Origin: a virus
Lineage: Duplodnaviria > Heunggongvirae > Uroviricota > Caudoviricetes
Reading direction: 5' to 3' (one strand)
IMG/VR virus record: IMGVR_UViG_2802429253_000012
Length of the DNA: 36,901 nucleotides
Positions within the stretch are counted from its first letter, which is position 1, and every line of letters starts with the position of its first letter. Position numbers and translations under genes: made by a program. This document shows positions 20,705 to 35,349 of this stretch, one piece after another. The notes beneath the pieces are model-generated. The model saw only the letters and a list, made by a program, of their open reading frames with translations, searched no databases and was not told the DNA's origin.

Positions 20705-20779
<75 letters not shown>

Positions 20780-20782
20780 ATA

Positions 20783-20858
<76 letters not shown>

Positions 20859-22041: not shown

Positions 22042-22640
22042 TACGCAAACTCCAGTAGCTGCGCGGCCACATTTTCGACTTGTTCCGGAGAGGAAAATTT
22101 ACGGAACAGAATCCAGTTCCACAGCACATTCAGTACAGATTTATAAACCTGCTGAAACTCGGTTTCGTCCATATTCGCAAACGCGATGGATTTCGCCCGA
22201 CGCCCACGACTACCATCAGGATAAAAATGCTCGGTGTAAAATCCGGCCTGAATGGTTACCCACTCGCGGAAAGCGTCAAATGATTTGAGCAATGCCATAT
22301 CCCGGGTTCTGCGTGTCGCAACGGTATTCAGATATTGTTCCGCGGCATCACTCAGAGCTGGCGTATGTTCCCTGCCTACTGATTCACACAGGTAATCAAC
22401 GAAGCCGAACACCATTTCTCGTTCGCGAGGTGTAATCGCCCCACCGACCGGAGTCCAGTAATCGAATCCCAGTTGCAGGAGTTTGAAAAAACGCTTGTGG
22501 AATGCGTAGTTACGCACACGCTTAAAGTCTGCGTGTATCCACTCACCTATTTTGATTTGATGCAGAAAATCGCAACTCTCCGGCGTCGCCGGGAGAAGTA
22601 AACCAGAAGAAGTTTGTTTGACCAGTTGTATATGCGCCAT
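22041..22640 (-). CDS. Conserved nin-region hypothetical protein
   Basis: 199-aa ORF whose stop overlaps the YbcO-like start; no family confidently recognised. Confidence 0.55.
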   Translation of the reverse strand: MAHIQLVKQTSSGLLLPATPESCDFLHQIKIGEWIHADFKRVRNYAFHKRFFKLLQLGFDYWTPVGGAITPREREMVFGFVDYLCESVGREHTPALSDAAEQYLNTVATRRTRDMALLKSFDAFREWVTIQAGFYTEHFYPDGSRGRRAKSIAFANMDETEFQQVYKSVLNVLWNWILFRKFSSPEQVENVAAQLLEFA

Positions 22641-22913
22641 TTCTCAATCTCTCGATGGCGCAGTGCAGCAGATGCCAGTTGTTCAGGCTGACGTATGAAG
22701 TATAAATAAACTGGCTCCAGTGTAAAGTCCCCACCTTAATGAAATAAAAACCAAACAACAGATTGCCGGGATAAAAACAACGCTTATTATTAAAAGCGGT
22801 TAAACAAATTAAATTTTAATGTTATGCAAATCTACCAGATCACCATAATATCTCATTTGAAAACCACTGAAATAACAATCCTATCAAGATCAATCATATT
22901 AAGGTGAGTAAAT

Positions 22914-23000
22914 ATGGAAAACAACAAATCTGCACATTACGCTCCTTTTTTATCTGTAATACTTTTTGTTTTATGCTGTGCGTGGGCATTATTTTTATAA
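22914..23000 (+). CDS. Candidate 28-aa small hydrophobic protein (MENNKSAHYAPFLSVILFVLCCAWALFL)
   Basis: Not in the ORF track; ATG at 22914 with AAGGTGAG RBS 5 nt upstream; single predicted TM helix; in an AT-rich gap. Confidence 0.3.
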   Translation: MENNKSAHYAPFLSVILFVLCCAWALFL

Positions 23001-23106
23001 AAATATTTACAGATAAAATAAACTCGCCAAAACTGGTTAAGTGTGGGTGCGTTGAGGATGCATAATACATCAGAGGTGGCGAGGGATTTCTCCCTCGCCC
23101 GGTCTC

Positions 23107-23262
23107 TTACTCCTCAGGTTCGTAAGCTGTGAAGACAGCGACCTCCGTCTGCCCGGTTCGGATTCGTACCTCGCAGAGGTCTTTCCTCGTTACCAGTGCC
23201 GTCACTATGACGGTTAAACAGATGACGATCAGGGCGATTAACATCGCCTTTTGCTGCTTCAT
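23107..23262 (-). CDS. hok: Hok/Gef-family type I toxin
   Basis: 51-aa frame MKQQKAMLIALIVICLTVIVTALVTRKDLCEVRIRTGQTEVAVFTAYEPEE matches the Hok family along its length; AAGGAG RBS; in-frame 19-codon upstream extension (mok-like) to 23319. Confidence 0.85.
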   Translation of the reverse strand: MKQQKAMLIALIVICLTVIVTALVTRKDLCEVRIRTGQTEVAVFTAYEPEE

Positions 23263-23499
23263 AGCCTGCTTCTCCTTGCCTTTCGGCACGTAAGAGGCTA
23301 ACCTACATGTGTTCAGCATAGATTGAGCCTCAGATTAATGTTAAGCGTCTTGCAGGACGCGTAATGTTAACTGGGGCTTTTCTCTATCTGCCTTTTGGTG
23401 TTCATGCCTGAGGCAGATAGCCTCAAGCACCCGCAGCAATTTTACTTAACTCCCGCTACCTCGCCAATATGAAATCAATAAGAAAGGTGCTCCATAAAA

Positions 23500-24186
23500 T
23501 CACTCCTTCTCTTCTTTACCGTAGTGGAGTTGACCAATTTTGATAAGAGGGCGTCCCTGAGATTTGCGGTGTAGATTGGTATCGCGCAGAGAATACACAC
23601 AGCCACAATATTCCTGCTGATAGAATTTTTCGCGCTTGCTGATTTCAATCATGCGGGACGAGCCGCCCTGCTTGCGCCAGTTATAATCCCAGTACACCAT
23701 GCCCGGATAATGCGCGACGGCTCGCCGCCCACAGTCGTTAACCTGCTGCATATTTTTCCAGCGTGAAATGCCCAGTGAACTGCTGATCACACTGAAACCA
23801 TTTTCAGCAGCGTACAGCGCTGTCCGCTCAAAACGCATGTCAAAACACATGGTACAACGGATCCCCCTCTCGGGCTCCCATTCCATTCCTTTGGCACGTT
23901 CAAACCAGTTGTCTGTGTCGTAATCAGCATCAATAAATGGCACGCCGTGTTGTTCAGCAAAGCGAATATTCTCATCCTTACGAATTAAATACTCTTTCTG
24001 AGGATGAATGTTCGGGTTGTAGAAAAAGATGGTATAGTCGATTCCCGAGGCCTGAAGCGCCTCCATCACTTCACCGGAACATGGAGCACAGCAAGAGTGC
24101 AGTAGTAGTTTGTTTGCCCCGTTTGGGAGCTCCAATTTAGGCCGTTTGAAATCAGCAATAGTCATAAATATTTTTATTGGGGTCAT
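23500..24186 (-). CDS. QueH-like (DUF208) putative Fe-S epoxyqueuosine reductase homologue
   Basis: 228-aa ORF with motifs [28 protein letters not shown] and C-terminal YCGCVYS that I recall as characteristic of DUF208/QueH; no obvious SD at either candidate start. Confidence 0.55.
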
Positions 24187-34973: not shown

Positions 34974-35168
34974 ATGCGGTATGAAAAAGTCAAACCATGC
35001 CCTTTTTGTGGTTGTCCATCAGTAACGGTGAAAGCCATTTCAGGATATTACCGCGCGAAGTGTAACGGATGCGAATCCCGAACCGGCTATGGTGGAAGTG
35101 AAAAAGAAGCACTCGAACGATGGAATAAACGAACCACTGGAAATAATAATGGAGGTGTTCATGTATAA
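34974..35168 (+). CDS. ralR: Restriction alleviation protein RalR (Lar)
   Basis: 64-aa frame MRYEKVKPCPFCGCPSVTVKAISGYYRAKCNGCESRTGYGG... matches my recollection of Rac RalR. Confidence 0.8.
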   Translation: MRYEKVKPCPFCGCPSVTVKAISGYYRAKCNGCESRTGYGGSEKEALERWNKRTTGNNNGGVHV

Positions 35169-35349
35169 AATTACCGCCACTATTGAAAAGGAAGGTGGCA
35201 CTCCTACTAACTGGACAAGGTACTCAAAAACAAAATTAACCAAATCAGAATGCGAAAAAATGCTCTCAGGTAAAAAAGAAGCAGGCGTTTCCAGAGAGCA
35301 GAAAGTAAAACTGATAAATTTTAATTGCGAGCAACTTCAGTCCTCGTGA
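35161..35349 (+). CDS. YdaC-like small protein (62 aa)
   Basis: ATG at 35161 overlaps the ralR stop; GGAGGTG RBS. Confidence 0.5.
   Translation: MYKITATIEKEGGTPTNWTRYSKTKLTKSECEKMLSGKKEAGVSREQKVKLINFNCEQLQSS

Follow-up and report, generated by a model that had tools for sequence, protein, structure and literature searches.

The hok/mok/sok family of type I toxin-antitoxin cassettes has been known since the 1980s. In the plasmid-borne hok/mok/sok (parB) locus of R1, for which post-segregational killing has been demonstrated, synthesis of the primary transcript stops at a terminator beyond the fold-back inhibitory (fbi) element. Slow 3′ trimming then removes fbi and halts at a GC-rich stem just after hok, and this stem protects the active truncated mRNA, as described in PMC9841398. 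Of the 22 loss-of-function substitutions described there for the R1 3′ UTR, 19 break a C-G pair of the stem, and the truncated mRNA is then gone. The same source summarises the R1 model in which the nascent transcript carries a metastable 5′ hairpin, and it presents translation of mok, not the mok product, as what matters. From the positions given in it, R1 mok is out of frame with hok.

The closest described relative of the present locus is a prophage system. The hokW/mokW/sokW locus of Stx2 phage 933W and Sakai prophage Sp5 (AF125520) encodes HokW, which arrests growth, and sokW, which prevents the arrest when transcribed from its own promoter; the two are thus a type I pair (Takada et al. 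2021, PMC8621323). E. coli K-12 carries hokC/mokC/sokC (gef) and, in the Qin prophage, hokD (relF). HokD is one of the previously characterised toxic homologs and served as a positive control in a 2026 survey of Hok proteins. The cassette family, and the subtype to which the present locus belongs, are therefore already annotated in public records and experimentally tested, and nothing at the locus is new in kind.

The hok cassette and its prophage context

The window, i.e. the whole stretch of 36,901 nt of viral DNA analysed here, is a complete Rac-like lambdoid prophage. Its genes include int, xis, ralR, recET, kil, sieB and trkG, repressor, replication and nin-type genes, two tRNAs, and genes for lysis, head and tail. 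The window is related to the prophage of E. coli 042 (1.53-1.57 Mb), with ∼98% identity in the main blocks and 95-96% in three shorter ones, and is not identical to it. The region studied is almost certainly a complete hok/mok/sok cassette of the hokD/hokW subtype, located in the early-right (nin) region of this E. coli prophage. All sequence elements of the cassette are present and the RNA pairings are conserved, with the exception of a degenerate terminator. The elements are listed below in the order of the hok transcript, followed by the two on the opposite strand.

23439-23467, minus: putative promoter of the hok/mok mRNA, -35 TTGGCG (23467-23462), 17-nt spacer, -10 TAAAAT (23444-23439); found by consensus scan, 9/12
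23421-23432, minus: tac element at the predicted 5′ end of the hok mRNA, GGGUGCUUGAGG; pairs with fbi in the MFE and centroid folds
23404-23430, minus: predicted 5′ metastable hairpin, formed by tac with the sequence directly downstream; inverted repeat and folding of the first 43 nt
23373-23379, minus: ucb, the anti-SD box AAGCCCC; predicted partner of the mok SD in the closed form and of tac in the open form
23294-23331, minus: sokT target hairpin with the mok SD GAGG (23331-23328), the mok AUG and a loop with the YUNR motif CUGA (23316-23313); folding and third helix of the Rfam model
23107-23319, minus: mok reading frame, 70 codons, in frame with hok; ORF list and mokW/mokC layout
23107-23262, minus: hok toxin gene, 51 aa; ORF list, Pfam PF01848 and identity with HokD
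23078-23099, minus: GC-rich 9-bp hairpin, probable terminal stem of the processed hok mRNA; inverted repeat, folding and covariation
23045-23057, minus: fbi element CCUCAACGCACCC, complementary to tac; folding and pairing in homologous loci
23013-23036, minus: remnant of the hok terminator, CCAGTTTTGGCGAG followed by a T-rich run; alignment with relatives
23276-23304, plus: putative sok promoter, -35 TTGCCT (23276-23281), 17-nt spacer, -10 TAACCT (23299-23304); sequence reading and homology
23311-23381, plus: putative Sok antisense RNA of ∼71 nt; transferred from annotated sokW (933W) and sokC (K-12), both ends placed by homology

The preliminary description of this DNA had proposed a Hok-family locus at 23073-23500. 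The family assignment was borne out; the interval stops short of the terminator remnant and of fbi, which sits ∼20 nt beyond it. The 51-aa peptide matched the Pfam family HOK_GEF (PF01848) over profile positions 1-42 of 42 with 81.6 bits (cutoff 22) and E = 3e-23. It is 100% identical to K-12 HokD and 92% identical to HokW, from which it differs at 4 of the last 8 residues (FTAYEPEE here and FVDYESEK in HokW). Peptide identity is 82% with HokC and only 39% with R1 Hok, although R1 belongs to the same toxin family and has the same regulatory elements. Along both RNAs the order is tac, metastable hairpin, ucb, mok SD, sokT, hok, terminal stem and fbi. The tac element of the window is also that of K-12 hokC, whereas R1 tac reads GGCGCUUGAGG. 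At the DNA level, the nearest locus was that of 933W, with 93.8% identity over ∼420 bp from the leader to fbi, and the corresponding stretch of 933W is annotated mokW, hokW and sokW. The 933W locus has the same layout, and it differs in the -35 region of the hok promoter and in everything downstream of fbi.

The hok gene lies directly downstream of queH and upstream of nin-type genes encoding DUF1367, DUF1364 and DUF1133 proteins, all on the same strand, which is also the strand of the replication, Q-like and lysis genes. In 933W, by contrast, hokW is found near the right end of the phage genome. A 701-bp segment around the cassette was unchanged in 7 complete E. coli genomes, and 1,088 genomes carried at least 80% of this query. 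The enrichment of hok cassettes in prophages has already been reported, and the window provides one more example. In RefSeq, only the 51-aa CDS is labelled at this DNA, as hokD; mok, Sok, tac, fbi and the promoters are unannotated there. The coordinates given here therefore complete the annotation of the prophage locus. Beyond correct annotation the significance is small, and consists of two minor points for specialists, the decayed terminator and the placement inside an early operon.

The RefSeq gene name, the identical peptide and a near-identical 3′ UTR, including hairpin and fbi, would all fit a locus of the K-12 hokD type, that is, a leaderless third gene of the relBE operon free of antisense control; both genes also reside in lambdoid prophages. 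Alignment refuted this reading. The similarity to K-12 ends just upstream of the hok SD, where relE and relB follow in K-12 in place of the whole leader (tac, ucb, mok and sok). The window has the full leader of ∼170 nt with all four of these elements, and its upstream gene is queH, with no relBE immediately upstream. A hokD locus of the K-12 type is thus extremely improbable, and the hokD/hokW cassette with its own leader is the reading followed below.

Analysis with Rfam pointed to the same identity. The family RF01794 (‘sok’) matched 23257-23432 on the hok strand with 119.6 bits against a gathering score of 59, over positions 1-157 of 157 of the model. The model consensus begins with GGGUGCUUGA and finishes with the hok SD and AUG. 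Because it is written in hok-mRNA orientation, the match marks the hok leader and says nothing on which strand encodes Sok. A permissive Rfam search of 22500-23600 returned, besides the hok leader, only matches at chance level.

The reading frames agree with those of the described relatives. The preliminary description had assigned the 51-aa frame an AAGGAG ribosome-binding site of its own and an upstream in-frame extension of 19 codons resembling mok. Both features can be read directly. AAGGAG is located at 23277-23272 on the minus strand, 9 nt from the hok ATG. The mok ATG is at 23319 (AUG 23319-23317), with GAGG 8 nt upstream, and the frame runs through hok. In both mokW/hokW (933W) and mokC/hokC (K-12) the two frames end at one stop codon, with the mok start 57 nt upstream of that of hok, so the 19-codon extension is exactly the mok arrangement of this subtype; the layout of the known loci is matched and the ORF is intact. 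An in-frame mok is not universal, since mok and hok of K-12 hokB stop at different positions. Of 39 homologous loci, 33 have a start codon located 57-58 nt ahead of the hok AUG whose frame crosses the hok start (26 in frame, 7 out of frame). This retention of the mok start whatever the frame agrees with the published view that translation, not the product, matters. No hairpin was predicted around the UACG editing motif when it was folded in isolation.

The hok leader, Sok and the proposed control

For comparison, 53 loci encoding relatives of this Hok were fetched by a single-protein scan, one genome per species, and pairs were counted in a 39-sequence alignment of loci from six genera. An R1-type plasmid copy whose leader is cut by IS150 was used for 3′ comparisons only, and an Atlantibacter plasmid copy was taken as the intact R1-like reference.

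The Rfam leader model begins at the G at 23432, and the -10 of the hok promoter ends 6 nt ahead of this base. In the alignment, the counterpart of the -10 region is TAGAAT in 933W and TATAAT in K-12 hokC. The hok mRNA would thus start at about 23432. The predicted full-length RNA (23432-23010) folded at -160.8 kcal/mol (z = -8.0), and in both the MFE and the centroid structure its first 12 nt paired with fbi. The tac-fbi duplex comprises 12 bp with one bulge (-21.5 kcal/mol).

This pairing was recovered across several genera. Among loci retaining the leader, the first 12-14 nt paired best 45-56 nt after the stop codon in nearly all, and the pairing occurred at the same distance from the stop in Escherichia, Kluyvera, Photorhabdus, Pantoea, Citrobacter and Erwinia. 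Compensatory changes convert GGGUGC/GCACCC into GGGCGC/GCGCCC in Photorhabdus and Pantoea, and GAGG/CCUC into GAGA/UCUC in Kluyvera and Photorhabdus. The tac-fbi pair 4/404 is U-A in 26 of the 39 loci and C-G in 10. Standard pairs were present in 89.1% of the cells of the alignment, compared with 39-50% when the partners were slid by 1-3 columns. Changes on both sides were seen at 14 pairs, and none of 500 shuffles reached the observed values.

Other leader elements also folded as in the family. The first 43 nt of the hok mRNA gave -19.9 kcal/mol (z = -3.63). In the full-length MFE structure, GCCCC of the ucb box paired with GAGGC of the mok SD, while in the Rfam consensus structure AAGCCCC pairs with GGG-UGCUU; the AAGCCCC columns are invariant in the 39 loci. 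The sokT hairpin alone folded at -15.5 kcal/mol (z = -3.25), with AGCCUC (23299-23294) as its 3′ arm, which corresponds to dcb. Its CUGA loop is complementary to the 5′ end of the putative Sok; a U-turn role of the YUNR loop is attributed to Franch et al. 1999 in the reference list of PMC1635323.

The leader sequence fits the Rfam consensus structure, which encodes the open form, with tac paired to ucb and the mok SD to dcb. When the truncated mRNA was folded by free energy, the metastable 5′ hairpin was preferred, at -63 kcal/mol against -44 kcal/mol for the constrained open form, and the open translatable form was not reached as the minimum-energy state either in free folding or when the RNA was forced onto the Rfam structure. 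As thermodynamic folding gave no open form of the truncated RNA, the refolding switch proposed below is taken from the family.

On the plus strand, the sequence supports a cis-encoded antisense RNA, Sok, that has both a promoter and a terminator hairpin of its own and is complementary to the region where translation of mok begins. The preliminary description had expected such an RNA on this strand around 23260-23340. The strand holds, given the homology to sokW and sokC, the identical promoter and the strong terminator-type hairpin; the position shifts, by homology, to 23311-23381. Both sokW and sokC begin 9 nt inside mok, and sokC has an equivalent position. The putative Sok would begin with a free single-stranded 5′ tail of 14 nt, followed by a long hairpin and a U tract, and it would span the mok SD and AUG. 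It folded at -30.0 kcal/mol (z = -5.76). Pairs of its hairpin covary in the 39-locus alignment (A-U in 27 and G-C in 12; G-C in 26 and A-U in 12). The hairpin shares with 933W an extension of 18-20 nt, the 18-nt extension being missing in K-12 hokC.

The sok promoter is weak by consensus, with 7/12 matches and only 3/6 in the -10, and it fell under the threshold of the promoter scan. It was therefore placed by homology and by published mutagenesis primers: YO-421/422 of Takada et al. 2021 replace exactly this -10 to give the ‘pro-less’ sokW mutant (PMC8621323). From the -35 through the first nine transcribed bases the sequence is identical to 933W, and Sok itself differs from sokW at only 2 positions. 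The -35 overlaps the hok SD and is invariant in the 39-locus alignment.

With these elements, we consider with high confidence that the control mechanism can be transferred from R1 and hokW; for the strain carrying the prophage, we infer transcript ends, processing and biological role. The weak promoter at 23467-23439 would produce a stable mRNA of ∼390-420 nt starting near 23432. During synthesis, its 5′ end would be kept in the local hairpin. In the complete mRNA, tac would pair with fbi (23057-23045), and in the resulting closed form the AAGCCCC box further upstream would base-pair with the mok ribosome-binding site. Slow 3′ trimming to the GC hairpin (23099-23078) would remove fbi, and the leader would then refold so that the mok start is exposed in a hairpin loop. 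The short-lived Sok would bind this loop with its free 5′ tail, and the duplex would be destroyed; RNase III cleavage of the duplex is among the steps shown for the R1 and hokW-sokW systems (PMC9841398, PMC8621323). Once Sok has decayed, mok would be translated, the hok start opened and the 51-aa membrane toxin made. Since Sok binding or decay would decide whether Hok is translated, Hok would appear only when sok transcription stops, upon loss of the element, shut-off of host transcription by an infecting phage, or prophage induction.

The 3′ region of the hok transcript

A perfect 9-bp inverted repeat, GGCGAGGGA/TCCCTCGCC with a 4-nt loop, begins 8 nt after the hok stop. Its RNA folded at -23.0 kcal/mol (z = -4.83), and none of 200 shuffled sequences was as stable. 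Perfect 9-bp stems with loops of 3-8 nt occur 6 times in the 36.9-kb window, two pairs of these being overlapping registers of one hairpin, against a mean of ∼1 in Markov simulations. The stem is 97.5% paired in the 39 loci, and 4 pairs are changed on both sides. The hairpin noticed in the preliminary description at 23078-23099 is thus a perfect, stable repeat conserved with compensatory changes. Its assignment as the folded end of the hok mRNA applies to the processed RNA, where by analogy it is the counterpart of the protective 3′ stem of R1; it does not apply to the primary end, nor to the fold-back element, which lies further downstream. In K-12 hokC, IS186 is inserted in the 3′ hairpin and removes fbi. 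An ORF of 58 aa at 22894-23070 was taken as non-coding, as it overlaps fbi and has no Pfam match.

In K-12 hokD, K56-43, F2_407 and phage Rac 442/2, alignment places an intact terminator, ACCCGCTTCGGCGGGTTT, directly after fbi. R1 also has a strong terminator after fbi. The window reads ACCAGTTTTGGCGAGTTT at this site, with three substitutions relative to ACCCGCTTCGGCGGGTTT within the 14-nt stem-loop (window form ACCAGTTTTGGCGAG, intact form ACCCGCTTCGGCGGG). The remnant folded at -3.0 kcal/mol (z = 0.14), which is not more stable than shuffled sequence, compared with -12.8 and -11.8 kcal/mol for intact versions, and a terminator scan of 22800-23700 found no intrinsic terminator. As the terminator after fbi is degenerate, the primary 3′ end is uncertain, and transcripts may continue into the AT-rich spacer and the nin genes.

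The lost terminator could be the first sign of decay in a cassette that is otherwise intact in sequence yet functionally silent, as has been proposed for the chromosomal hok loci of K-12. The three substitutions contrast with the rest of the cassette, which is 94-100% identical to relatives, and in a close relative, CFSAN061771, the hok ATG is already gone (ATA). Copies in K-12 are either interrupted by IS186 or IS150 or no longer have their leader, and chromosomal hokA, hokB and hokC gave no post-segregational killing according to work cited in the 2026 Hok survey. However, the window has intact versions of both promoters, of tac, fbi and ucb, of the SD and start codon of mok, of the SD and ORF of hok, and of the 3′ and Sok hairpins, and the toxin peptide is that of HokD, a toxic homolog. 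Moreover, the experimentally active hokW locus has unrelated sequence with no recognisable terminator after fbi, so a terminator at this spot is neither required nor strictly defining. A silent remnant is therefore unlikely. Given the functional hokW, we read the terminator loss, by analogy, as variation that leaves the primary 3′ end uncertain and not as evidence of inactivation.

Candidate roles of the cassette in the prophage

Stabilisation of the prophage and abortive infection, the roles suggested in the preliminary description, are plausible candidates. Unlike the control mechanism, the biological role cannot be carried over from R1 and hokW, as the lines of evidence point in different directions. 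Post-segregational killing is established for R1, while the chromosomal copies cited above gave none. Phage exclusion remains a candidate because R1 hok/sok lowers the plating of T4, in work cited in PMC8621323. For prophage copies of this subtype, direct experimental evidence comes from hokW-sokW alone and favours assistance with lysis and phage release upon induction: after mitomycin C, the sokW RNA was lost and HokW was induced in a RecA-dependent manner, and deletion of the locus halved phage release (PMC8621323).

The orientation of hok in the early operon makes a role linked to induction plausible, as an argument from placement: the gene directly follows queH and is read in the same sense as the replication, nin, Q-like and lysis genes, and no terminator was predicted before or after it. 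Sense read-through from the early-right region would then suppress sok and supply hok RNA. That help with lysis and phage release is the main role, in preference to prophage stabilisation or phage exclusion, is less likely than not. The effect in Sp5 was just two-fold, and since hokW sits elsewhere in 933W/Sp5, the read-through argument does not carry over from it.

A more specific form of this proposal links it to the decayed terminator. Antiterminated early transcripts would cross hok, shut down the convergent sok promoter through transcriptional interference and provide RNA containing hok, so that terminator loss and sense placement in the early-right/nin operon together would couple Hok to induction. 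If so, the cassette would be an induction-triggered lysis helper instead of an addiction module. We regard this coupling as quite improbable. The placement inside the early operon makes the locus a simple test case for the response of prophage hok cassettes to induction, a response that has been proposed for hokW-sokW.

Sok annotation and a second RNA-controlled toxin system

Rfam matches on the minus strand of the prophage include:
23257-23432, minus strand: match to RF01794 ('sok antitoxin')
35167-35345, minus strand: RalA sRNA (RF02694, 215 bits, full model matched)

The RF01794 match lies on the strand opposite to the real Sok RNA because the model, 157 nt in length and with its 3′ limit at the hok AUG, was built in the orientation of the hok mRNA. 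An automated pipeline relying on RF01794 would therefore assign 'sok' to the incorrect strand and overstate its length. RalA is the antitoxin in the RalR/RalA type I toxin-antitoxin pair, and the presence of this antitoxin RNA indicates that the prophage contains two different RNA-controlled toxin systems.

Decay of hok loci and the region downstream of hok

The hairpin downstream of the fold-back inhibitory element of hok was found as a remnant:
23013-23036, minus strand: hok terminator hairpin remnant, differing by three substitutions from the version in K-12 hokD and in several other strains

The terminator hairpin of the window no longer folds (-3.0 vs. -12.8 kcal/mol). The related strain CFSAN061771 contains two of the three substitutions, together with an ATG to ATA change at hok. 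Several paralogous hok copies in other E. coli and Shigella genomes are visibly broken (L056 and L060, for example), with frameshifted ORFs or, in the K-12 type, without the leader (L018, L019). These broken paralogous copies show that chromosomal hok loci decay frequently.

The stretch at 22700-23000, between hok and the DUF1367 gene, is AT-rich, with 28-30% GC, and contains no annotated gene and no ORF matching Pfam. The K-12 prophage Qin and phage Rac 442/2 both have rem at the corresponding spot.

A possible editing site in hok

UACG is the A-to-I editing motif of TadA, and it occurs within hok:
23121-23124, minus strand: Tyr47 codon in a UACG motif

As shown by alignment of 39 homologous hok loci, the TACGAA around Tyr47 is invariant. 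No local hairpin was predicted around the UACG motif when it was folded in isolation. Tyr-to-Cys editing of hokD mRNA, like that of hokB, is described in a Hok survey preprint.

tRNA genes and queH

Genes related to tRNA were located at two places in the prophage, both on the minus strand:
20705-20858, minus strand: adjacent genes for tRNA-Gly(tcc) and tRNA-Thr(tgt)
23500-24186, minus strand: queH, epoxyqueuosine reductase gene (Pfam E = 1.9e-65)

The tRNA pair is flanked by a Q-like DUF1133 gene and lysis genes. queH directly adjoins the hok promoter on its upstream side, on the same strand as hok; its product is 228 aa in the ORF list, while the RefSeq start is 7 codons further in. QueH is a tRNA-modification enzyme, encoded in the same prophage as the tRNA genes.
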